Below, one piece after another: positions 206-30,899 of a stretch of 32,000 bases of DNA; the stretch's first letter is position 1; each line of letters begins with the position of its first letter. This stretch comes from an uncultured Acidobacteriota bacterium (GTDB lineage Bacteria; Acidobacteriota; Terriglobia; Terriglobales; Acidobacteriaceae), in NCBI GenBank assembly GCA_963703465.1, contig CAVPEQ010000004.1:57893-89892 (forward strand), given 5' to 3'. The notes beneath the pieces are model-generated. The model was not told where the DNA came from, made no database searches, and saw only the letters and a program-made list of their open reading frames with translations. The translations under genes and the position numbers were made by a program.

Positions 206-308
206 CTCTGTGGCGTTTCTCTGTGAACCTCAGTGTTCTCTGTGGTGAAAGAATTTTAAAAGCATCAACCACAGAGGACACAGAGTTCCACAGAGGAAAA
301 ACACAGAG
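206..308. repeat. Family B hairpin (B1): inverted arms, each built from four CTCTGTG/CACAGAG units
   Basis: The left arm (206-248) has CTCTGTG at 206-212, 219-225 and 238-244, plus a degenerate CCTCAGTG at 229-236. The right arm (266-308) has CACAGAG at 270-276, 279-285, 289-295 and 302-308. The inner arms are imperfect reverse complements (about 26 of 31). The loop is 249-265. Confidence 0.85.
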
Positions 309-2943: not shown

Positions 2944-3002
2944 CATGTGTTGAGCGGTCATGTATGGAGCGGGCATGTGTGGGGCGGGCGCCCTCGCCCG
3001 CC
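2944..3002 (+). repeat. Family A stem-loop repeat (A2) with a triplicated 15-nt leader
   Basis: Three 15-nt units are present: CATGTGTTGAGCGGT (2944-2958), CATGTATGGAGCGGG (2959-2973) and CATGTGTGGGGCGGG (2974-2988). The last unit runs into the stem GGCGGGCG (2983-2990), loop CCCT and stem CGCCCGCC (2995-3002). Confidence 0.9.
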
Positions 3003-3014
3003 AAGACTTCCTGA

Positions 3015-3792: not shown

Positions 3793-3818
3793 GTGTGGGG
3801 CGGGCGCCCACGCCCGCC
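3787..3818 (+). repeat. Family A stem-loop repeat (A3)
   Basis: The sequence is ATGTTGAGTGTGG followed by GGCGGGCG (3799-3806), loop CCCA and CGCCCGCC (3811-3818). It overlaps the DUF3052 stop codon at 3790-3792. Confidence 0.9.
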
Positions 3819-3986
3819 ATGAGTCGAAGAAAGAAGTCATTGCGAAGGTGAAAAAACTCTGGACCGTTCTTAGTGTTTTGCTGGCCCTGCTTATTTCGTG
3901 GTGTGTGGTCTCGTCGGATCCTTCACAAACCGACACCCTCAAAAAAATCAGGATTCAAAAGGCTGGCGACTGTCTGTGAACAAATC

Positions 3987-5153: not shown

Positions 5154-5207
5154 AATGTGTGGTGTGGTGTGGTGTGGGTGGTGTGGCGCGGGCGCCCTCG
5201 CCCGCGA
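5154..5207 (+). repeat. Family A stem-loop repeat (A4, CGCGGGCG variant) preceded by a GGTGT pentanucleotide microsatellite
   Basis: Perfect GGTGT units lie at 5161-5175 with degenerate flanks at 5157-5186. The stem CGCGGGCG (5187-5194), loop CCCT and stem CGCCCGCG (5199-5206) follow. Confidence 0.9.
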
Positions 5208-5272
5208 TTCGGCATTGATGAGAATGCGAAAGCGGAACATCACTCGAATCTCGTTCGTATCAACGCACAGTC

Positions 5273-6247: not shown

Positions 6248-6262
6248 CCGTAGTGCACAAAT

Positions 6263-6290
6263 TCGCGGGCGAGGGCGCCCGCGCCACATT
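6263..6290 (-). repeat. Family A stem-loop repeat (A5, CGCGGGCG variant, inverted orientation)
   Basis: Positions 6263-6288 are the exact reverse complement of 5182-5207 (26 nt). The stem is 6264-6271/6276-6283 with loop AGGG. It lies between convergent stop codons and overlaps the stop of the JAMM gene. Confidence 0.9.
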
Positions 6291-6723: not shown

Positions 6724-6804
6724 CAGCTGTTAGCTCTTAGCCTTTAGCTTTTAGCTGAACCCGATTGGGTTTGGCTAAAAGCTAAGAGCTAATGGCTAAA
6801 AGCC
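6724..6804. repeat. Family C hairpin (C1) built from GCTAA[AG][AG] heptads
   Basis: The left arm is CAGCTGTTAGCTCTTAGCCTTTAGCTTTTAGCTGAA (6724-6759). The right arm is TTGGCTAAAAGCTAAGAGCTAATGGCTAAAAGCC (6771-6804). The arms are imperfect reverse complements (about 22 of 26). The hairpin fills the whole cysM-to-JAMM intercistronic gap. Confidence 0.9.
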
Positions 6805-7806
6805 GCCTTCCGTCCAAAATCTCTCGCTCAAATATTTATCGCCGGAGTCAGGGAAGATTGTGACCATCACGGCTTCGTCGTCCTTCTTTAATTTATGTGC
6901 TACCTGCAAACATCCGGCGATGGCCGCTCCTGCCGAGATGCCCAGCAGTAGGCCTTCTTCACGCGAGGCGCGAATCGCATAAGCATAGGCGTCTTCAGTT
7001 GCTATTTCGATGTCTTCGTCGGCCAGCTTGGGATCGTATATCTTCGGCACGATGGCGCTGGCCATGTGCTTCGCGCCCTCGATGCCATGAAACGGCGAAT
7101 CCGGTTGCAGGGAAATGCAGCGTACGTTGGGGTTCAATTCTTTCAAGCGGCGCGACGTGCCCATGAAGGTTCCACTGGTGCCGAGCATGGCCACGAAGTG
7201 CGTGACCCGTCCTTCCGTTTGTTGCCAGATTTCTTCAGCTGTGCCATGGTAGTGAGCCTGCCAGTTGGCCGGGTTCGAATACTGGTCAGCGTAAAAATAT
7301 TTTTCCGGATCGCGGGCGTAGAGTTCGCGTGCCGTAGTAATGGCTCCATCCGATCCGTCAGCAGGGTCGGTGTAGATGATGTTTGCCCCGTAAGCGAATA
7401 GAATGCGCTTGCGCTCAACCGAAACATTCTCCGGCATGCACAGCGTGACCGGAAATCCATCGGCGGCGCCGATCATGGCATAGGCGATGCCGGTGTTGCC
7501 GCTGGTCGAATCGAGCAGAGTTTTGCCGACTGAAAATTTTCCGCTACGCCGTCCTTCTTTCACGATGTTGAAGGCAGCGCGATCTTTTACTGATCCACCC
7601 GGGTTGTACCACTCGGCTTTCCCGAGCAGTTGCACATTAGGCAGATCGCGGACAATGCGCCCCAGCCTCAACAAAGGCGTGTTGCCGATGCGCTCCAAGC
7701 TGCTCTGGCCGAGCTTGGAGTGGCCAATCTCAGTCTCAGGTTCGTCGATTTTGACAGTTGAAGGCCGCATGCGCTTGTGACTATCGTAATGTCGCTGAGA
7801 ATACAA
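6796..7806 (-). CDS. cysM: Cysteine synthase (PLP-dependent; CysM/CysK family); alternative start at 7770
   Basis: It has the PLP-lysine motif GGSVKDR, IGNTPLLRL, the SGNTG loop and GTSGTFMG. It is 336 aa from 7806. The adjacent JAMM gene suggests the CysO-dependent CysM type. Confidence 0.85.
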   Translation of the reverse strand: MYSQRHYDSHKRMRPSTVKIDEPETEIGHSKLGQSSLERIGNTPLLRLGRIVRDLPNVQLLGKAEWYNPGGSVKDRAAFNIVKEGRRSGKFSVGKTLLDSTSGNTGIAYAMIGAADGFPVTLCMPENVSVERKRILFAYGANIIYTDPADGSDGAITTARELYARDPEKYFYADQYSNPANWQAHYHGTAEEIWQQTEGRVTHFVAMLGTSGTFMGTSRRLKELNPNVRCISLQPDSPFHGIEGAKHMASAIVPKIYDPKLADEDIEIATEDAYAYAIRASREEGLLLGISAGAAIAGCLQVAHKLKKDDEAVMVTIFPDSGDKYLSERFWTEGGF

Positions 7807-7910
7807 ATCAGCGCTTAGTGGTTAGATTATAGAAGAGCGCTCTAGGATACAGTGGTTTGGGTATGCGTCGATTAAGTGAGCGACGCATCTAACGATTGAA
7901 GGCAAGCTTT

Positions 7911-8001
7911 TTGCTATTAGCTCTTAGCCTTTAGCTGAAGCGATTTTGTTTTGGCTAAAGGCTAAGAGCTAAAGGCTAAAAGCTAGCAGCTAGGAGCTGA
8001 A
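7911..8001. repeat. Family C hairpin (C2) with an extended heptad array on the right arm
   Basis: TTAGCTCTTAGCCTTTAGC (7917-7935) pairs perfectly (19 bp) with GCTAAAGGCTAAGAGCTAA (7954-7972). The right side then continues as heptads AGGCTAAAAGCTAGCAGCTAGGAGCTGAA to 8001. The loop resembles that of C1. Confidence 0.9.
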
Positions 8002-8561: not shown

Positions 8562-10586
8562 TCACTCAGCGATCCCAAAAAATTTCTCCACCTGCCCGAT
8601 ATCCGTCGTGCGCCGATAATTCGGCAGGCTCTCCACAAACACCCGCCCGTACTGTTTTTTCAGAATACGGTTGTCCAGCAACACCAGCAGTCCACGATCA
8701 TGCAATGATCGGATCAGCCTTCCGAATCCCTGCTTCAACGTAATCACCGCCGCCGGCACCTGGTACTGAAAAAACGCATTCCCGCCCTCGGCATCCACTG
8801 CCTTCACCCTCGCTGCGACTACCGGATCCGACGGCACCGCGAATGGCAACCGGTCGATAATCACGCAACTCAGCTGCTCGCCCTGCACGTCAACTCCTTG
8901 CCAGAACGAAGACGTCGCAAACAGCACGCAATTCGGTGTGACGCGAAACTCCTCGAGCAGCGCGCTCTTCGGAGCATCGCCCTGCAGCAGCATGGGAAAC
9001 TCAACCTCGCCCAACAATCTTTGATAAATGTCGCGCATCTGCGCGTAACTGGTGAATAGAACGAAGGCCCGCCCGCGAGTAATCTCCAGCAGTTTGCGAA
9101 TGCGGTCGGCAGCCTTTACGGAAAATTGCGGAGTGCGCGGATCGGGCAAATCCGGCGGAACATACAAAATTGCCTGGTTCGGATAATCGAAGTGCGAGGG
9201 CAGCACCAGATCTTTTGCGTGCTCGATTCCCAGCCGCTGGCGTATGTAATCGAATCCTCCGCCCACTGCCAGTGTGGCTGAAGTCAGCACCACGGTATCG
9301 AGCTTCGACCACAAGCATTCTCGCAACACCGGGCCAACATCGATTGGCGTAGCCTGCAACGACACGTTCAGCTTCTCTCGCCCCGTGCGTCGCCGTTCAA
9401 TCCAGAACACTGTATTGTGATCTTCCGATTCCATCGCGAAACCGAGCTGCACCTGCAACTCCTGCGCCCGCCGTGAGAACGCATAAACTTCTTCCGGCTT
9501 AGACGGTAAGTTTTCCAGCTCGGCGCCGATGTGGGTGAGCGAGCGCTGCAGTCCGAGAAATTCCTCGCCATTTTCTTCTAAAAATTCTCGCCGATTTTCA
9601 AATGCGAATCGCCCCTCCCCTTCGGGCAGCAGCGAAAAGAAAAACCCCGAGCGTTCCCGCAAGCTCTTGATGGCGCCGGAAAGCCCGGACGTGTACATTC
9701 GATTCCGCTGCAGTGATCCCTCAACGTCCCGGCACAACTCTTCCAGTCGCGCCGCGCTGACAGAAATCCCAAAATAATTTCCTGCAACGTCTTCCAACTC
9801 ATGCGCTTCATCGAAGATCACCGCCCCCGCTTCCGGAAGAATCCCGGCATCGGGCGCGCCGTCAGCCTGCTGCTTGATGGCCAGGTCGGCAAAAAACAAG
9901 TGATGATTGACGATGATGATGTCGCTTTCCATCGCCCGGCGGTGCATTTCGGTGACAAAGCACTTGTCCCACGCACTGCACTTCTGACCCAGACAGGTGT
10001 CGGCGCGGGCATCGAGCTTGTGCCAAAGCGCGCTAGCCTCAGGCAGAGAAGCCAGCTCCGAGCGGTCGCCGCTGGCTGTGTTTTCTTCCCACGCCGCAAT
10101 CGCGCGGTACTGTTCGATCTCATCAAGCCCGTTCAACACCGGCTGTCCGGTCAGGTCGTAAAGTTTCTTCCGGCACAAATAATTATTGCGCCCCTTCATA
10201 TAGCAAACGCTAATTTTGCGATTGCCTTCCGGATACAGCGCCTGCTGAAGAAACGGAACGTCTTTGTGAAAAAGCTGCTCCTGCAGATTCTTGGTTCCGG
10301 TCGAAATGATCACACGCTTGCCCGATCGAATCACCGGCATTAAATAAGCCAGCGTCTTGCCGGTTCCGGTGCCGGCTTCGACAATCAGGTGCCGTCGCTC
10401 TTCCAGCGCCTGTTCGACCGCCTGCGCCATCTGCAACTGCCCGCGCCGAAATTCATACGCAGGATGAGTCTGCGAGAGTACTCCACCCGGCCCAAAAAAC
10501 TGGTTGAGTGAAGGGCTGCCTTTGGGAATGGAAACAGCGGGCTGAGAACCGGCAGGCACGGAGTCTCTATAATAGCTGCGAGCCAC
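8562..10586 (-). CDS. dinG: ATP-dependent DNA helicase, DinG/XPD (Rad3-related) family with Fe-S Cys cluster
   Basis: It has Walker A AGTGTGKT, the DEAH box FDEAHELED, four Cys (CYMKGRNNYLC ... CLGQKCSAWDKC) consistent with the Fe-S domain, and C-terminal helicase motifs (SSFWQGVDV, QGFGRLIR). It is 674 aa. Confidence 0.85.
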   Translation of the reverse strand: MARSYYRDSVPAGSQPAVSIPKGSPSLNQFFGPGGVLSQTHPAYEFRRGQLQMAQAVEQALEERRHLIVEAGTGTGKTLAYLMPVIRSGKRVIISTGTKNLQEQLFHKDVPFLQQALYPEGNRKISVCYMKGRNNYLCRKKLYDLTGQPVLNGLDEIEQYRAIAAWEENTASGDRSELASLPEASALWHKLDARADTCLGQKCSAWDKCFVTEMHRRAMESDIIIVNHHLFFADLAIKQQADGAPDAGILPEAGAVIFDEAHELEDVAGNYFGISVSAARLEELCRDVEGSLQRNRMYTSGLSGAIKSLRERSGFFFSLLPEGEGRFAFENRREFLEENGEEFLGLQRSLTHIGAELENLPSKPEEVYAFSRRAQELQVQLGFAMESEDHNTVFWIERRRTGREKLNVSLQATPIDVGPVLRECLWSKLDTVVLTSATLAVGGGFDYIRQRLGIEHAKDLVLPSHFDYPNQAILYVPPDLPDPRTPQFSVKAADRIRKLLEITRGRAFVLFTSYAQMRDIYQRLLGEVEFPMLLQGDAPKSALLEEFRVTPNCVLFATSSFWQGVDVQGEQLSCVIIDRLPFAVPSDPVVAARVKAVDAEGGNAFFQYQVPAAVITLKQGFGRLIRSLHDRGLLVLLDNRILKKQYGRVFVESLPNYRRTTDIGQVEKFFGIAE

Positions 10587-10605
10587 AAATCAGCACAGAG
10601 CCGAG

Positions 10606-10635
10606 CCATGTGGGGACGGGCGCCCCCGCCCGTCC
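10606..10635 (+). repeat. Family A stem-loop repeat (A6, 9-bp stem variant)
   Basis: The sequence is CCATGTGG followed by GGACGGGCG (10614-10622), loop CCCC and CGCCCGTCC (10627-10635). It sits in the divergent dinG/der intergenic region. A small palindrome GTCGAGC-TAT-GCTCGAC follows at 10637-10653. Confidence 0.9.
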
Positions 10636-10672
10636 AGTCGAGCTATGCTCGACGAACTTTTGTTAACCTCAA

Positions 10673-12301
10673 ATGAATTCAATTCCTCTCATCGCCATCG
10701 TCGGCCGGCCAAATGTCGGCAAATCCACGCTGTTCAATCGTCTTGTTGGTTCCCGCCGCGCCATCGTCGGCGACGAACCCGGCATCACTCGCGACCGTTT
10801 GTACGGCGAAGGCCACTGGCGCGGATATGACTTCCGCATCGTCGACACCGGCGGCATCATTCCCGAAGACAAAGATTTCATCCCCTCAGAGATTTTCCGC
10901 CAGGCGCGGGTGGCGCTCGACGAATCTGCCGCGATCGTGATGGTCGTCGATGCCCGCACTGAATTGGCCGGCCCCGATCTCGAACTGGCGCGACTGTTGC
11001 GAAAAACCGGAAAGCCGCTATTCGTAGCGGCGAACAAAGTTGACTCTGACAAGCAGTCATCTCTCGCAGACGACCTTCATCGGCTGGGCATCCGCGAGAT
11101 CATTTCCATTTCCGCCGAGCACGGCCGCGGAGTTGATGACTTGCTGGATGCAATCCTCGCGGCGCTACCGAAAAAAACCCTCACCACAGAGGGCACAGAG
11201 AACACAGAGGGAAAAGCCACAGAGGAAAAACCTGAAGAGGGAAGAATTACAGCGGGTGCCCCGTCCTTCCCGCGTTCTGCGCGGGAGGCTGGGGATGTTG
11301 ACTCCCAATTACCCAGCACAGACGAGACAAAGGACTATCACAAATCCAAGCCCCAGTCTCAAAGGTCGACGCGTCGCCGGGAATCGAAGGTCTTGCCGAA
11401 GAGCGAAGACCGACAACCGACGACCGACGACGAAACTGAAAATGTGGAAGCTCCGGCGCCCTCGGAAGTCAGCGTTGCCATCATCGGCCATCCTAATGTC
11501 GGCAAGTCCACGCTGCTGAATCAACTTACCGGCGCTGACCGCTCGATCGTCTCCCCCGTCCCCGGCACCACGCGCGACGCGGTGGACGAAGTCGTCGAAC
11601 GCGATGGCATGAAGTTCCGTTTCATCGACACCGCGGGAATTCGCCGCAAGGGCAAGACCCACCTCATGGCCGAAAAGCTCTCAGTGGTAATGGCGCGCAA
11701 GCATCTCGAAGCCGCCGACATCGCCCTGCTGGTCATCGACGCCACCGAAGGCGTCAGCGCTCTTGACGCCGCAATCGCCGGCTATGCCCACGAGAGCGGG
11801 CGTTCCATGATCATCGTGGTGAATAAATGGGACCTGGTGACGAGCGGCGACAAAAAAGCCGTAAGCCAATCTCGGACGGCGAGAATTCAAGACGGCAAAC
11901 GCCCCGACGACCGTACCGCTTACGAGCAGCGCCTGCGTTATGCGCTGAAATTTCTGAATTACGCTCCGGTGCTTTTTGTCTCAGCCGCCAAGGGTAAGGG
12001 CACGGATAAAATCTTCCCCACGCTCGAGAAAGTCGCCGCCGAACGCCGCAAGCGCGTGACCACGGGCGAGATGAACCGCTTCCTCAAGCACGTCGACTTC
12101 GACCGCGCTTCGGTCCCAGTGCGCCAGCGCGTGAAAATTCTCTACCTGACCCAGGCTGCCGTGGCTCCCCCGACCTTCATTCTGTTCACCGACCGCCAGG
12201 TGAAGTTGCACTTCTCCTACCAGCGTTTTCTGGAAAACCAGATTAGAGCCGCATTCGGCTTCGTAGGCACACCTATCTGGATTAAAGTTCGAGCTCGCTA
12301 A
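10673..12301 (+). CDS. der: Ribosome-biogenesis GTPase Der (EngA) with an unusually long inter-domain linker
   Basis: It has two G domains (GRPNVGKST...DTGG...NKVD and GHPNVGKST...DTAG...NKWD) and a KH-like C-terminus. It is 542 aa. About 100 codons separate the two G domains. Confidence 0.95.
   Translation: MNSIPLIAIVGRPNVGKSTLFNRLVGSRRAIVGDEPGITRDRLYGEGHWRGYDFRIVDTGGIIPEDKDFIPSEIFRQARVALDESAAIVMVVDARTELAGPDLELARLLRKTGKPLFVAANKVDSDKQSSLADDLHRLGIREIISISAEHGRGVDDLLDAILAALPKKTLTTEGTENTEGKATEEKPEEGRITAGAPSFPRSAREAGDVDSQLPSTDETKDYHKSKPQSQRSTRRRESKVLPKSEDRQPTTDDETENVEAPAPSEVSVAIIGHPNVGKSTLLNQLTGADRSIVSPVPGTTRDAVDEVVERDGMKFRFIDTAGIRRKGKTHLMAEKLSVVMARKHLEAADIALLVIDATEGVSALDAAIAGYAHESGRSMIIVVNKWDLVTSGDKKAVSQSRTARIQDGKRPDDRTAYEQRLRYALKFLNYAPVLFVSAAKGKGTDKIFPTLEKVAAERRKRVTTGEMNRFLKHVDFDRASVPVRQRVKILYLTQAAVAPPTFILFTDRQVKLHFSYQRFLENQIRAAFGFVGTPIWIKVRAR
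11181..11232 (+). repeat. Family B single arm (B2) inside the der coding sequence
   Basis: CACAGAG lies at 11185-11191, 11194-11200, 11203-11209 and 11218-11224. Spacing and flanks resemble right arm 266-308. It is translated in frame as TTEGTENTEGKATEEK. Confidence 0.8.
11252..11296 (+). repeat. Family E palindromic element (E1) inside the der coding sequence
   Basis: The sequence is GCGGGTGCCCCGTCCTTCCCGCGTTCTGCGCGGGAGGCTGGGGAT. It matches the reverse complement of 17428-17470 in blocks of 11, 7 and 11 identical nt. It has an internal hairpin. Confidence 0.8.
11405..11434 (+). repeat. Family D heptad tract (D2) inside the der coding sequence
   Basis: GAAGACCGACAACCGACGACCGACGACGAA resembles the GACCGAA/GGCCGAC heptads at 30868-30899. 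It is translated as EDRQPTTDDE. Confidence 0.6.
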
Positions 12302-15335: not shown

Positions 15336-16199
15336 ATGTTGGAAAATACGCGACATGCCGGTAGCGACCGCCTGCGCCGGATCGAAGGCCGCCACAACTC
15401 GCTGCTAAAGGAATTGCGGCAAGCCTTCAGCCGAGGCGAACTAACGGCTTCCGGTGAGTGCGCCATCGAGGGATTTCGCGTCATCGAAGAAGCCGTCCGC
15501 AGCGGGCTTCGTTTCCGCGCCGTTTTCGTCAGCGAATCCGGCCAGGCCCGCGCCGCGAAACTGCTTCCGCAGATAAAGTCGCAGGTCGAAACTGTATTGA
15601 TCCCCGACAAGCTGTTTGCCAACACAGTTCCCAGCGAGGCTCCTCAGGGCGTGGCTGCTTTGGTCCATGTGAAGACCCACACTCTCGATCAGCTTATGGA
15701 GAACGCTCCGGGGCCGCTGTTGGTAGTCGCCGGCCTACAGGACCCAGGAAATTTGGGCACAATCCTGCGTTCAGCCGAGGCCTTTGGAGCTGCTGGCGTG
15801 GTCTTAGGCGAAGGCACCGTGAGTGTTTACAACAGCAAAGTGGTAAGAGCCTCGGCGGGCTCGGTTTTCCGCGTCGCCGCTCTAAAAGCCGACCTGAAAG
15901 GCGTTATTGAAAAGTTGCGCAACAGCGGTGTCAGGCTGGTTGCGACTTCATCCCACAAAGGCATCGCGCTTCCAAAGACAGATCTCAGTCGCCAGATAGC
16001 CATCTTCATCGGCAACGAAGGCGCCGGTCTCGACAAAAAGCTCATAGCAGAAATGGACGAGCTAATCATGATCCCACATTCACCACGAGTCGAATCCCTG
16101 AACGCAGGAATCGCCGCCAGCATAATCTTGTATGAGGCATCACGGCAGAAAACCATCATCACCACGGAGACACGGAGGCACGGAGAAAACGCGGGCTGA
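15336..16199 (+). CDS. TrmH/SpoU-family RNA 2'-O-methyltransferase (RlmB/TrmH group)
   Basis: It has the SpoU motifs LQDPGNLGTILRSAEAFG, IFIGNEGAGL and IPHSPRVESLNAGIAASIILYE. It is 287 aa. The last ~13 codons (TTETRRHGENAG) are encoded by repeat B3. Confidence 0.85.
   Translation: MLENTRHAGSDRLRRIEGRHNSLLKELRQAFSRGELTASGECAIEGFRVIEEAVRSGLRFRAVFVSESGQARAAKLLPQIKSQVETVLIPDKLFANTVPSEAPQGVAALVHVKTHTLDQLMENAPGPLLVVAGLQDPGNLGTILRSAEAFGAAGVVLGEGTVSVYNSKVVRASAGSVFRVAALKADLKGVIEKLRNSGVRLVATSSHKGIALPKTDLSRQIAIFIGNEGAGLDKKLIAEMDELIMIPHSPRVESLNAGIAASIILYEASRQKTIITTETRRHGENAG
16160..16191 (+). repeat. Family B arm (B3, CACGGAG variant); perfect 32-nt direct repeat of 16585-16616
   Basis: The sequence is CACCACGGAGACACGGAGGCACGGAGAAAACG, with CACGGAG units at 16163, 16171 and 16179. 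It overlaps the 3' end of the methyltransferase gene. Confidence 0.95.
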
Positions 16200-16203
16200 T
16201 TCA

Positions 16204-16578
16204 ATGTTGGTTCACGAACACCTTACGGAACAAATAATTGGTGCAGCGATCGAGGTGCATCGAGAACTCGGCCCTGGTTTACTCGAATCAGCCTATGAAC
16301 AATATTTTTGCCACGAACTGCACCTGCGAGGCTTGGCATTCCAGTGCCAGCTAGATGTGCCAGTCATGTATAAAGGCCTAAAGCTCGATTGCGGATATCG
16401 ACTGGATGTGGTCGTAGACGAAACCGTCGTGATTGAATTGAAGGCCGTCGAACAAATCTTGCCGATTCATCAGGCGCAGTTGCTCACGTACCTACGATTA
16501 AGTGGCAAGAAAGTGGGACTAATCATCAATTTCAATGTCGCAGTCCTCAAGAATGGAATTGTCAGAAGAGTTTTATAG
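16204..16578 (+). CDS. GxxExxY protein (PD-(D/E)XK nuclease-like, PDDEXK_3 / TIGR04256-type)
   Basis: From ATG at 16204 the protein reads MLVHEHLTEQIIGAAIEVHRELGPGLLESAYE... (GxxExxY = GLLESAY). It also has D...VIELK (the D..ExK-like core) and QLLTYLRLSG. It is 124 aa. The listed ORF start at 16132 lies within the upstream repeat and gene. Confidence 0.85.
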   Translation: MLVHEHLTEQIIGAAIEVHRELGPGLLESAYEQYFCHELHLRGLAFQCQLDVPVMYKGLKLDCGYRLDVVVDETVVIELKAVEQILPIHQAQLLTYLRLSGKKVGLIINFNVAVLKNGIVRRVL

Positions 16579-16584
16579 CCGAGC

Positions 16585-16703
16585 CACCACGGAGACACGG
16601 AGGCACGGAGAAAACGTTGTTTTATGATTTGGAGCGGCAAATTGCCGTATGTTCCAGGGTGTTTATAACAAGTTTTCTTCGTGCCTCCGTGTCTCCGTGG
16701 TGA
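16585..16703. repeat. Family B hairpin (B4/B5, CACGGAG variant)
   Basis: Arm 16584-16615 (CCACCACGGAGACACGGAGGCACGGAGAAAAC) and arm 16672-16703 are reverse complements at 30 of 32 positions. The 56-nt loop (16616-16671) contains the palindrome CGGCAA-A-TTGCCG. Confidence 0.95.
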
Positions 16704-16715
16704 AATGGTTTTTTC

Positions 16716-18155
16716 ATGAGTCTCTTCCAAGCGATTCCCGGCGGCAGTAACCCCGACGATCGCGGCCGTCCTCTCGCCGATCGCATGCGCCCGCGCACGC
16801 TCGACGAATACGTCGGCCAGGAGCATCTGATCGCGCCCGGCAAGCCTCTGCGCGCGCAGATCGAGCGCGATGACATCGGCTCACTCATCTTTTGGGGACC
16901 TCCCGGCACCGGCAAGACCACACTCGCAAAAATCATTGCCAGCATGGCTCGAGCTGAATTCATCGAGTTCAGCGCCGTGCTTTCCGGGATCAAAGAGATT
17001 AAGCAAGTGATGGCCGACGCCGAACGCGGACGCCAGTACGGCACTCGAACCATCGTCTTCGTCGACGAAATTCACCGCTTCAACAAAGCCCAGCAGGACG
17101 CATTCCTTCCCCACGTTGAGAAAGGCAACATTCGCCTGATCGGCGCGACCACCGAGAACCCATCGTTTGAAATTATTTCCGCGCTGCTATCCCGCAGCCG
17201 CGTGTACGTGCTCAAACCACTCACCGAAGAACAGATCGTAATTCTGCTGCGCCGCGCGCTTGAAGACGCAGAACGCGGCCTGGGCGCGATGAAATTGTCC
17301 GCCAGCGATGACGTTTTTCGCCAAATCGCAGCTTATTCCAGTGGCGACGCCCGCAGCGCCTATAACGTGCTAGAGGTCGCGGCCGCGCTGGCTACGGTCG
17401 ACACCCGACTCGGGAAAGAAAGTCAAAATACCCAGCCTCCCCGGAAAACGGGGAAGGCTGGGGCACCCGCAGAAATTTCCGGCGCACACGAGATCACCAC
17501 CGAGATCGTTCAGGATGCTCTCCAGAAGCGCGTGCTGCTTTACGACAAAGCCGGTGAAGAGCATTACAACCTGATTTCGGCGCTGCATAAGTCGGTACGC
17601 AATAGCGATCCCGACGCCTCACTCTACTGGCTGGCGCGCATGCTCGAAGCCGGCGAGGATCCGCTGTACATCGCCCGCCGCATTGTGCGAATGGCCGTCG
17701 AAGACATCGGCCTCGCCGATCCCAACGCGCTTGGGTTGTGCATGGCCGCACGCGACGCGATCGAATTCCTGGGCATGCCGGAAGGCAATCTTGCATTGGC
17801 ACAAGCTGCCGTCTATCTTGCCATTGCTCCGAAGTCGAACGCTCTATATACCGCGTATTCCGACGTTCAGCAGGATGTCGAACGCACCGCGGCCGAGCCC
17901 GTTCCGTTACATCTTCGCAACGCGCCCACCGGCCTCATGAAGAACCTCGGCTATGGTCAGGGATACCAATACGCTCACGATCTCGAAAACAAAATCGCAG
18001 ACATGCAGTGCCTGCCCGACAATCTGAAAGATCGCCGCTACTACCATCCCACGAACGAAGGCGTAGAAAAACGCATCCGCCAACGCTTGGAAGAAATCCG
18101 TTCGCAGCGATCAGCATCCCCAACCCGAGAAACTAAAACAGAATCCGGCGAATAG
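16716..18155 (+). CDS. rarA: Replication-associated recombination protein A (RarA/MgsA AAA+ ATPase)
   Basis: It has [14 protein letters not shown], Walker [10 protein letters not shown], Walker [21 protein letters not shown], and the MgsA C-terminal motifs ([36 protein letters not shown]). It is 479 aa. Confidence 0.92.
17428..17470 (-). repeat. Family E palindromic element (E2) inside the rarA coding sequence, inverted relative to E1
   Basis: The sequence is ATACCCAGCCTCCCCGGAAAACGGGGAAGGCTGGGGCACCCGC. The internal hairpin is CCCAGCCTCCCCG / CGGGGAAGGCTGGG. The reverse complement aligns to 11252-11296. It is translated as [15 protein letters not shown]. Confidence 0.8.
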
Positions 18156-29359: not shown

Positions 29360-30841
29360 CTAAGCGCCCTGCACGAAGGCTTCGCCGGTACCCAATATTT
29401 CCTGCACCAGCTCCGGCGATGCCGCTTCCGCATAAACCCGCAATAACGGCTCCGTGCCCGAAGCGCGAAACAGGATCCATGCCTCAGCCCCATTCCCGTT
29501 GGTCGGTGCATCGAGAAAGAACTTAATCCCGTCGAGTGTTTCTTTCTTGATCACGCCATATTTCCCGAGGCGCTTTGTGGATTCCGACTTCGCCCGTTCG
29601 ATGGCGCCGAACTTAATATCGTCAGCGATGTGAAGATCGCGGCGTCCATAAAAATGCGGCCCGTATTCCTTCTGTAACGAAGCCACCAGCGCGCCCAGCG
29701 GCTTCTTCTCTTCCGCCAGCACATTCGCCAGCAGCAGGGAATTCAGAATACCGTCGCGCTCCGGAAGATACCGCGAATATCCGATCCCGCCCGACTCTTC
29801 GCCGCCAATCACGATCTCCCGCTCCATCATCAAATCGGCAATGTGTTTGAATCCGATCGGGCACTCGTTCAACTTGCGCCCATATTTACCTGCGATGCGG
29901 TCGAGCATGCGCGTGGTATTGAACGCGCGCACCACCTCGCCCGGCCACTGCTTGCGCCGCAACACCCACTCCAGCAGCACAGAAAATATTTTGTGTGAAT
30001 CCACAAAGCTGCCGTCTTCCGCGACTGCGCCAATTCGATCGGCATCGCCGTCGGTCGCAAAACCCGCATGGCAATGTTCGCGCACCACCGTCTCCTGCAG
30101 CATGCGCACATGCGGCTCGATCGGCTCAGGATTAATCTCCGGGAACAGCGGATTGACTTCCTGCCGTATCGCCACAAAATCGATCCCGTGTTCTTTAAAA
30201 ATTTGCGCCAGAATCCCGCGCCCCGAACCGTACATGGAATCCACAGCAAATTTAAATTTCGCTTTCGCAATCAAATCCAGATCAGCAAACTTGCAAACCG
30301 CGCGAATGTACGCCGGCTTCAGATCAACCTCCTCGATCTTCGCCTGCTTGCCTTTCGGAGCCGTTCCCGCGGCCACCTCCTGCTCGATCACTTTCATGAT
30401 CGCCGGGGTCGCCGATCCGCCAAACTTCGCCTTGAATTTGACGCCATTCCAATTCCACGGATTGTGGCTTGAAGTGATGACCACGCCCCCGGCAGCGCCC
30501 ATGTTTTTCACCGCAAACGAAATCGCCGGAGTCGGAGAGTAATCGCTGGCCAGCTTAATCGGAATTCCTGCGGCAGCCAATACCTCCGCCGCAGCCCGCG
30601 CGAATTGCGGCGATCCAAACCGCGTGTCATAGCCCACGATCAACCCGCGAGACGGATCTTCATGCTTCAGCACATACGCCGCGATCGCCCCCGCAACCCG
30701 GCGCACATTTTCAAACGTGAAATCGTCGGCGATGATCGCGCGCCAACCGTCAGTGCCGAACTTGATGGGAGCCATCGGTCGCCGGTCATCGGTCGTCGGC
30801 AATGGCGGATTGATGTTTGCGGTTTTAGTTTCTGTGACCAT
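29360..30841 (-). CDS. Phosphoglucomutase/phosphomannomutase-family (alpha-D-phosphohexomutase) enzyme; start ambiguous (30841, 30775 or 30865)
   Basis: It has FGTDGWR, the active-site TSSHNPWNWNG, the metal loop TDGDADR, and GGEESGG. ATG at 30841 follows GAGGATAGGGAG. ATG at 30775 (MAPIKFGTDGWR) fits the usual N-terminus of the family but has no SD. Confidence 0.9.
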   Translation of the reverse strand: MVTETKTANINPPLPTTDDRRPMAPIKFGTDGWRAIIADDFTFENVRRVAGAIAAYVLKHEDPSRGLIVGYDTRFGSPQFARAAAEVLAAAGIPIKLASDYSPTPAISFAVKNMGAAGGVVITSSHNPWNWNGVKFKAKFGGSATPAIMKVIEQEVAAGTAPKGKQAKIEEVDLKPAYIRAVCKFADLDLIAKAKFKFAVDSMYGSGRGILAQIFKEHGIDFVAIRQEVNPLFPEINPEPIEPHVRMLQETVVREHCHAGFATDGDADRIGAVAEDGSFVDSHKIFSVLLEWVLRRKQWPGEVVRAFNTTRMLDRIAGKYGRKLNECPIGFKHIADLMMEREIVIGGEESGGIGYSRYLPERDGILNSLLLANVLAEEKKPLGALVASLQKEYGPHFYGRRDLHIADDIKFGAIERAKSESTKRLGKYGVIKKETLDGIKFFLDAPTNGNGAEAWILFRASGTEPLLRVYAEAASPELVQEILGTGEAFVQGA

Positions 30842-30899
30842 CAGCTCCCTATCCTCTTCGCGCACTGGCCGACGACCGAAGACCGAAGGCCGACGACCC
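30774..30899. repeat. Family D hairpin (D1) built from GACCGA[AC] / [AG]TCGGTC heptads
   Basis: Arm 30774-30800 is ATCGGTC GCCGGTC ATCGGTC GTCGGC. Arm 30868-30899 is GCCGAC GACCGAA GACCGAA GGCCGAC GACCC. The arms are reverse complementary at about 22 of 27 positions. The loop is 68 nt. Confidence 0.8.

Follow-up and report, generated by a model that had tools for sequence, protein, structure and literature searches.

How does the ribosome-assembly GTPase Der, which is essential in model bacteria, come to carry 102 residues between its two GTP-binding domains, where the Bacillus subtilis protein has 14? The question is raised by a 32,000-nucleotide stretch of DNA from an uncultured Acidobacteriota bacterium (contig CAVPEQ010000004.1, positions 57,893 to 89,892; hereafter the window), in which the der (engA) gene occupies positions 10673-12301 of the plus strand. 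An initial annotation, made from the sequence alone, had read the linker as a mosaic of three repeat families, all translated in frame. We found DNA homology to repeats outside der for each of the three modules, and the linker has very probably grown by taking up, in frame, small dispersed repeats of kinds that are usually non-coding.

The closest Der proteins are named Terriglobales (Acidobacteriota) in their source records, and the comparison drew on 80 der loci taken from representatives of GTDB species. In 75 of these we could place the linker, giving 76 with the window; of the five remaining loci two are truncated, two are frameshifted in G domain 1 and one (L040) contains a stop codon and a compensated frameshift. 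About 20 kb of sequence was available per genome, and the pooled loci come to 1.9 Mb; the der-masked Terriglobales DNA against which linkers were searched comes to 1.45 Mb.

A long linker, predicted to be disordered, between the G domains of Der

The der open reading frame (ORF) encodes 542 amino acids. Pfam recognizes MMR_HSR1 in two stretches and KH_dom-like at residues 461-540, and the protein therefore has the Der/EngA architecture, in which a single polypeptide contains two GTP-binding domains in tandem and, after them, a KH-like domain. Alignment to 2hjg_A by phmmer (E 1e-101) falls into two blocks, residues 5-163 and 266-542; in the alignment with B. subtilis Der, G domain 1 extends to residue 163 and G domain 2 begins at residue 266 (nucleotide ~11468). 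The intervening linker (residues 164-265, nucleotides 11162-11467, plus strand) has no B. subtilis counterpart and sits between the two domains aligned in solved Der structures. The second P-loop, GHPNVGKS, begins at nucleotide 11486, and both this position and the end of G domain 1 had been placed correctly within a few bases.

The repeats had been described as introducing no stop codon, and the linker as surface-exposed and tolerant of length changes, with structure prediction as the way to confirm a disordered loop. No stop codon interrupts the window linker, its length varies between 36 and 125 codons among the orthologues tabulated, and in an AlphaFold model of Der built on 36 orthologues residues 172-261 have a predicted local distance difference test score (pLDDT) below 50 and no secondary structure. 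Peptide stretches of its translation include ITAGAPSFPR and TLTTEGTENTEGK. Three repeat-derived modules account for ~160 of its 306 bases, or about half of this predicted disordered segment, and the remainder matches no repeat family.

Three modules homologous to dispersed repeats

The first module (11172-11232, plus strand) comprises a flank and four CACAGAG units, translated as KKTLTTEGTENTEGKATEEK. Its reference is an intergenic hairpin at 200-312, upstream of an ORF of the DinB_2 family (357-962), in which an AT-rich loop separates three CTCTGTG units from four CACAGAG units and which folds at -56.2 kcal/mol (z -8.1). Module 1 shares homology with the right arm of this hairpin and with its flank on the side of the loop. 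An exact 15-mer is shared between 11217-11231 and 288-302, and an 18-mer is 94% identical between 11183-11200 and 268-285. The window holds 12 copies of CACAGAG against 2.7 expected, a count that none of 100 shuffles reached, and all 12 lie within 206-308, within 11185-11224 or, as a single copy, at 10594 just upstream of der. The two arrays had been said to be spaced alike; four units are present at both sites, with a spacing of 9, 9 and 15 in der (units at 11185, 11194, 11203 and 11218) and of 9, 10 and 13 in the right arm of the hairpin (270, 279, 289 and 302). Module 1 is a 7-nt motif with variable spacers and a period of 9-15. The homology is not limited to the units themselves: the der array of the orthologous locus L003 matches window positions 257-301 at 89% over 45 nt (TAAAAGCGTTAACCACAGAGGACACAGAGAACACAGAGGAAAAA), loop flank TAAAAGC.TTAACC included, and the flank AAGCTTTTAACC precedes many non-coding arrays of the CACAGAG family. 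In der the module represents one arm only and has no fold of its own (z -1.9).

The second module (11245-11303, minus strand) is a complete GC-rich hairpin of ~55 nt, whose plus-strand translation is ITAGAPSFPRSAREAGDVD. It is an imperfect palindrome, as had been noted, with a predicted RNA fold of -28.7 kcal/mol (z -2.4), and seven aligned copies from der and rarA of four genomes give the family consensus AGTCAAAAT-CCCCASCCTCCCGC-AAAGAA-CGCGGGAAGGNTGGGG-CACCC. The palindrome had been assigned to a family that is intergenic elsewhere in the window, but its sole homologue there, at 17421-17477 (plus strand) and in reverse orientation, lies in frame inside rarA/mgsA (16716-18155), in the AAA lid domain. 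The two copies align over ~55 nt with blocks of 20-21 nt at 90% identity, and the rarA copy folds at -29.6 kcal/mol (z -5.1). It adds ~25 residues to the lid, as placed from the gap in the Pfam domain AAA_assoc_2 (residues 192-295, 104 residues for 79 profile positions). The same rarA site is occupied in L001, L037 and L186, and carries a different sequence in L003.

Comparison of der orthologues indicates that the hairpin DNA behaves as an element rather than as a conserved peptide. The hairpin is common to orthologues down to ~74% protein identity. Relative to the window copy, that of L001 is 92% identical and in the same orientation, and those of L002 and L004 are 88% and 84% identical and in the opposite orientation; the translations read GAPSFPRS.REGGD in the window and L001 versus SPPSRKERGKDGAP in L002 and L004. 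A degenerate copy with the L002/L004 orientation is present in L003. In L037 only the left arm is left (AGTCAAAACCCCCACCCTCT) and the remainder is lost, the genes for proteins P0020 and P0046 are also half-deleted for the hairpin, and that for P0032 lacks it. The difference in orientation may stem from an inversion, from separate insertions, or from an ancestral inverted pair of which different members were lost. Synonymous conservation of module 2 is not significantly above that of the G domains (12/15 versus 0.65), and we make no claim of structural selection.

In the third module (11392-11434, plus strand) the flank CTTGCC accompanies five to six CCGAMGA heptads, and the translation reads LPKSEDRQPTTDDE. 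Its counterpart is the hairpin at 30773-30898, which is intergenic between a nucleotidyl-transferase gene and a phosphoglucomutase-family gene and folds at -60.2 kcal/mol (z -4.3); the phosphoglucomutase ORF overlaps the left arm of the hairpin, with its Pfam domain beginning only at residue 34. Tandem Repeats Finder reports the consensus CCGAAGA at both 11396-11431 and 30869-30898, with a strict period of 7 at each site, and module 3 is 82% identical to the latter array over 34 nt, including the flanks CTTGCC and CTGGCC. The double heptad CCGAMGACCGAMGR, searched with at most one mismatch, occurs seven times in the window against 0.07 expected and is confined to the der linker and the 30869-30898 array. 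The resemblance of the two sites had been proposed on the basis of GACCGAC heptads; it holds for the period-7 consensus and the double heptad, but the single heptamer is not significantly enriched in the window (8 versus 4.1 expected). The linkers of other der genes contain related CCAACGA arrays, for which there are matches among non-coding hairpins such as L003 6148-6252. Like module 1, module 3 is a single arm with no fold of its own (z -0.5), and the idea of structured repeats in the linker therefore applies to the module 2 hairpin but not to the two arrays.

An abundant GC palindrome of the window, GTGTGGGGCGGGCGCCCNCGCCCGCC, was considered as the family of module 2 and rejected because the two share no alignment and the only relative of module 2 in the window is in rarA. 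This palindrome has six intergenic copies (985-1014, 2977-3006, 3793-3822, 5181-5210, 6262-6289 and 10609-10638), one of them 35 nt upstream of the der start, and N-terminal extensions such as GRPRPP in some der orthologues resemble its translation. At 2944-2989 a 15-nt unit, CATGTGTGGAGCGGG, is repeated three times in tandem and continues into a GC palindrome.

Repeat signatures in der linkers across Terriglobales

In all 76 der genes in which both P-loops were located, the two G domains are in one frame without a stop. Since this holds across linkers of such different length, all length changes must have been multiples of three. The linkers abound in recognizable repeat translations: LTTEDTENTE or LTAENAENAE at their start, PTTDDQRPTTD or PTTNDQGPTTND close to their end and, in the middle, SPPSRKKREKDGAPS or GAPSFPRSVREGGD, SAGVPPAV, or DPSASLRAS.

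The 76 linkers were pooled and compared with DNA outside long ORFs in the der-masked sequence at a cut-off of at least 34 bits, with equal lengths of G-domain DNA as controls. The linkers gave 33 non-coding matches, versus 0 and 1 for the controls. Five repeat families are represented among these matches, a lower bound for what the linkers carry, and some matches reach 100% identity over 25-26 nt. A second signature is found in the codons. ACA-GAG encodes 41 of the 105 Thr-Glu pairs in linkers (39%) versus 3 of 223 (1.3%) in the G domains of the same genes, and the Leu codon preceding the array is TTA in 13 of 24 cases, compared with 1.7% of G-domain Leu codons, in agreement with the repeat flank TTAACC. 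Together, the non-coding enrichment and the codon signature exclude a purely protein-level or compositional origin of the linkers. Alignment of orthologues had been proposed as a way of dating each insertion; it dates them as old, modules 1 and 3 because they are common to Terriglobales der orthologues and thus order-wide, and the hairpin to the extent of its range in protein identity given above.

Two other segments of Der match no repeat family. A basic stretch in the middle of the linker (KSKPQSQRSTRRRESKV, 11333-11391) is kept in the subclade as KP.SQRS.RR and may be a functional motif within an otherwise repeat-derived linker. Within G domain 2, phmmer places an insertion of 17 residues relative to B. 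subtilis Der inside VTSGDKKAVSQSRTARIQDGKRPDDRTAY (11834-11911, residues ~388-413). Every aligned Terriglobales orthologue keeps this insertion at the protein level, and no repeat family matches it, so it looks like a functional insert specific to the lineage.

The same families in other genes and in non-coding DNA

The der hairpin, a member of the AGTCAAAAT subfamily, belongs to a larger superfamily of the form CCCACCCTTCGC-loop-GCGAAGGATGGGGCACCC. A metagenome scan with the query GNGAAGGNNGGGGCACCC returned at least 120 stretches, and the loci fetched from the matches listed contained 89 hairpins of this superfamily. Among these, 66 are not spanned by a long ORF, defined as one with at least 60 codons on both sides of the hairpin, and eight lie in frame within identified conserved proteins; it is in this sample only that the family is seen to be mostly intergenic. 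For six of the eight, a Pfam match precedes the insert and another follows it (MutS, TilS, TsaD twice, MiaB and an S9 peptidase); the other two were identified by sequence as a second S9 peptidase (L145) and RarA (L186), the latter with the insert at the site used in the window rarA. The hairpin is read in at least five different frames in its host proteins, giving peptides such as SKSPPSRKEREKDGAP, VPTLSQRTREGWGTP, GAPPFAVFEGWEE and GVPHPSPEGRVGD. This agrees with the theoretical frames: six of six are free of stops for the hairpin core, the CACAGAG arm and the CCGAAGA arm, and five of six for the GTCAAAAT (AGTCAAAAT) hairpin subfamily and the CCAACGA arm, so that in-frame survival of these elements is easy.

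A CACAGAG array is also read in frame in a DinG-like helicase whose gene adjoins der. In L008, L009, L031, L056, L063 and L065 this helicase (the orthologue of window 8562-10586, minus strand) contains SPQRHRDTE (…IERRGRGFSPQRHRDTETSK…) at ~8600-8700 of the carrier loci, and in the window, L001, L003, L004 and L048 it lacks the array, which makes six with and five without among the genomes examined. In non-coding DNA, CACAGAG-type and CCAACGA-type arrays occur at many sites in the pooled loci, many of them directly after stop codons. The motif families include CACAGAG, CACGGAG, CGCAGAG, CCGAMGA/CCAACGA, GCTAAAA and others, and the arrays commonly form inverted pairs that make long hairpins, with z-scores down to -13.6.

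The hairpin with that z-score lies at 16580-16710 of the window (-81.3 kcal/mol) next to a GxxExxY (PF13366) gene at 16204-16578. The gene stands between CACGGAG arrays, in which a 32-nt sequence is present as two perfect direct copies (16160-16191, 16585-16616) and once in inverted form (16672-16703), and in L003 and L201-L210 it lies directly between an array and its inverted partner. We considered the PD-(D/E)xK-like GxxExxY protein as a mobilizer of heptamer-array hairpins and found no evidence of a general association: all instances of the gene lying between CACGGAG arrays in inverted orientation (the window, L001, L003 and L201-L214) represent one orthologous locus (SpoU methylase, GxxExxY, RarA), and no further GxxExxY genes were found elsewhere in the 1.9 Mb of loci. 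At this locus the ORF of the SpoU-family rRNA methylase (15336-16199) runs ~20 codons beyond its Pfam domain through the CACGGAG array (…IITTETRRHGENAG) at 16134-16199 to its stop, and the repeat thus supplies its C-terminal tail; in L201 the SpoU stop comes immediately after the array.

Two further observations concern other families. Hairpins of GCTAAAA/GCTAAGA/AGCTTTT heptads at 6725-6803 and 7902-7998, 82% identical over 79 nt, flank a pyridoxal-phosphate enzyme gene (6796-7806) and represent a further motif family with the same array-hairpin architecture. In the MutS protein of L086 and the TsaD protein of L191, extra in-frame repeat peptides, NPTHDDETVMNGAPS and PTHGDTTAMNGAPS, are present in several copies per protein, which points to at least one further coding-compatible repeat family in Acidobacteriota.

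Origin and maintenance of the linker repeats

These results are consistent with a model in which the elements would spread by some route such as transposition of hairpin DNA, or copying via recombination or template switching, and in which selection would retain only those insertions that preserve the frame and fall in loops or linkers able to tolerate extra residues. The flexible linker between G domains 1 and 2 would be such a safe place and may have gathered pieces of several families over time. On translation the extra residues would give a disordered spacer whose specific function in the protein is slight or absent. The modules are old and inherited, the hairpin within a subclade, with later inversion or replacement and partial deletion.

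Several points weigh against this account. About half of the linker, namely 11304-11391 and the short stretches that separate or border the modules, has no match in any repeat family of this analysis. Translation of the linker and function of the host proteins are presumed from the open frame conserved in the 76 scorable orthologues. We identified no insertion mechanism or mobilizing enzyme (transposases were not looked for in the window) and defined no target-site duplication. As half elements, modules 1 and 3 call for later loss of an arm, or for a mechanism that copies one arm, beyond simple hairpin insertion. Finally, module 1 is more conserved than expected of a tolerated insert. Between the window and L003 it is 86% identical at the DNA level, with the same third codon position in 14 of 15 codons, compared with 49% identity at 4-fold sites of the G domains, and for cross-clade pairs the corresponding values are 62-69% versus 36-48%. 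Passive junk should have decayed, so more than relaxed tolerance is at work in this module; gene conversion, re-insertion and nucleic-acid-level selection would each account for it.

This last point leads to an alternative, in which the modules are kept at the nucleotide level, either by being overwritten again and again through gene conversion from the many non-coding copies (concerted evolution) or because selection acts on the motif itself at the DNA or RNA level, for instance as a site bound by whatever recognizes the intergenic arrays or as mRNA structure. Besides the identity values, it draws on the fact that ACA and TTA, both rare codons, have persisted in several lineages of der that are divergent, on the finding that the der arrays of the window and L003 bear the flank of their own genome's non-coding array, and on the substitutions in module 1, which are A/G transitions with roughly even odds of altering the amino acid and so argue against constraint at the protein level. 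Yet the array in clades L048-L053 has decayed at synonymous sites with the peptide TTEDTEDAEE retained, as in ordinary coding evolution, modules 1 and 3 form no structure by themselves, and tracking of each genome's own repeat variant is beyond the reach of ~20 kb per genome. We regard nucleotide-level maintenance as possible but rather unlikely, and put forward with the same reserve its broader form, that the repeat pieces in der are not fossils but are actively held identical to the genome's non-coding families across the order. If this were true, an essential gene would bear a live cis-element or recombination partner in its coding sequence, and Acidobacteriota housekeeping proteins more generally would go on acquiring disordered linkers and loops from dispersed repeats in a systematic way.

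Two other explanations dispense with incorporated repeats or with a translated linker. An acidic, low-complexity linker rich in Thr, Glu, Asp and Pro could have grown by replication slippage, with the motifs arising independently; the in-window BLAST matches are short (E-values 0.008 to 2), modules 1 and 3 are tandem short repeats of the kind that slippage typically produces, and GACCGAC by itself is not over-represented. However, the matches continue into non-repetitive flanks (AAAGCTTTAACC, CTTGCC), the codon pairs and Leu codons deviate 30-fold from the gene's own usage toward the repeat sequence, the double heptad far exceeds its expected count, and G-domain controls gave almost none of the non-coding matches seen with linkers. 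Nor is the 55-nt hairpin of low complexity, and further copies, 84-92% identical, exist in both orientations and outside der. Coincidence is therefore already contradicted by the flank, codon and control results, and we consider it very improbable. Alternatively, the linker could be non-coding, with der split or decaying around an open spacer, or an assembly artifact of repeats, which are prone to assembly error. This would fit L040 (CAWFMU010000019.1, 10001-11401), where the stop and compensated frameshift fall inside a CACAGAG-type array (…ATNH*GHGGRRGNTG…). But L040 and the two loci frameshifted in G domain 1 all come from MFD-series metagenome-assembled genomes, for which sequencing error is the likelier cause, and every scorable der gene keeps one frame through linkers of widely differing length. 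An identical Der protein (P0001) is encoded on a 2.9-kb contig of an independent JGI assembly, relatives at 85-91% with the same modules come from NCBI, ENA, JGI and Logan, and Der is a single polypeptide in all solved structures. A non-coding or artifactual linker is, in our judgment, scarcely credible.

Relation to known intragenic repeats

The initial annotation had likened the linker to the Rickettsia palindromic elements (RPE), reportedly found in protein-coding genes by Ogata and colleagues in 2000 and summarized in PMC3733652. The analogy is a good one: members of one hairpin family are read in several frames and both orientations in RarA, MutS, TilS, TsaD, MiaB and S9 peptidase. As with RPE, these are small dispersed palindromes that occur between genes and in frame inside conserved functional genes, in tolerant or surface regions, and orthologues differ in the presence of the repeat. 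The families are unrelated, however, and the hairpin is ~55 nt here versus ~100-150 nt for RPE-1. The RPE host has a reduced intracellular genome, whereas the present host belongs to a free-living soil phylum with large genomes. In the acidobacterial case, moreover, a single linker has gathered several unrelated families next to each other, two being tandem heptamer arrays in single-arm form.

A second comparison is with intragenic repetitive extragenic palindromes (REPs) of the GTAG/CGTC superfamilies, stem-loops of 20-40 bp that are mostly intergenic near gene ends (Di Nocera et al. 2013, PMC3733652). Intragenic REPs are known in Opitutus, Thauera, Thioalkalivibrio and Rickettsia, favor repair and RNA-related genes, and commonly occur as inverted pairs (PMC3733652). 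In both systems a minority of copies lies inside ORFs, often in genes of replication, repair or RNA, here MutS, RarA, the DinG-like helicase and tRNA-modification enzymes, and by analogy an inverted pair of the REP type could explain the two orientations of the der hairpin. The acidobacterial hairpin differs in having no consistent GTAG/CGTC tag; it ends mostly in AGTCAAAAT and in a few loci (L002, L154 and L165) in CGTCAAAAT, and the larger superfamily CCCACCCTTCGC...GCGAAGGATGGGGCACCC is likewise without the tag. We therefore do not file it under the REP superfamilies. [quoted passage not shown] They resemble the present repeats as non-autonomous elements that enter coding sequence without destroying it and add peptide segments. 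MITEs are, however, 70-300 bp long with terminal inverted repeats and target-site duplications, compared with ~52-60 nt for the hairpin here; the array hairpins, at 100-130 nt, have inverted arms.

The arrays of modules 1 and 3 also recall dispersed tandem heptamer repeats, among them the cyanobacterial short tandemly repeated repetitive (STRR) sequences; most acidobacterial arrays differ from STRR in forming inverted pairs. GGGAATC and GGGGA(C/T)T heptamer repeats in Xanthomonas and Nostoc are concentrated within ~50 bp of gene ends and are rarer than expected within coding DNA (PMC4692102). All share the organization of short arrays, typically of about four units, of a 7-nt motif, as seen in modules 1 and 3 and their non-coding relatives. 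But the Xanthomonas and Nostoc repeats are G-rich proposed quadruplex formers, whereas the acidobacterial arrays comprise many motif families, commonly form inverted-pair hairpins and are read in frame in der and the helicase.

A search of Rfam gave no family at gathering thresholds, and up to an E-value of 1 only sub-threshold microRNA-precursor and Actino-pnp matches on the long hairpins, which are generic. In-frame colonization had been thought undescribed for this kind of genome. We found no description of acidobacterial intragenic repeats in the literature searched, where Acidobacteria are mentioned in PMC3733652 only for terminal inverted repeat (TIR) elements of Koribacter, and did not find the element sequences in the bacterial papers searched, but in-frame insertions of REP-like repeats are documented in several other phyla (PMC3733652). 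The der linker is therefore a case of an already known phenomenon, selfish repeats in frame as in RPE and intragenic REPs, in a new phylum and with new repeat families. Two features are unusual: a single linker combines several families into a mosaic, with single arms of heptamer-array hairpins among them, and the DNA of one family is conserved well beyond neutral expectation.

Acidobacteriota rank with the most abundant bacteria of soils, and most of what is known of their proteins comes from metagenomes. Segments derived from repeats affect housekeeping genes across the order Terriglobales, including those for Der, RarA, MutS, TsaD, TilS, MiaB and a helicase, and repeat inserts inflate protein lengths, split domain models and spawn many spurious hypothetical proteins, for which annotation and marker-gene phylogenies should allow. 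The unexpectedly strong DNA conservation of the der array makes exchange between coding and non-coding repeats testable with whole genomes. The inserts also provide a natural map of sites in essential proteins that tolerate 15-100 extra residues, and they extend the pattern of selfish DNA within genes from reduced intracellular genomes to large free-living ones.

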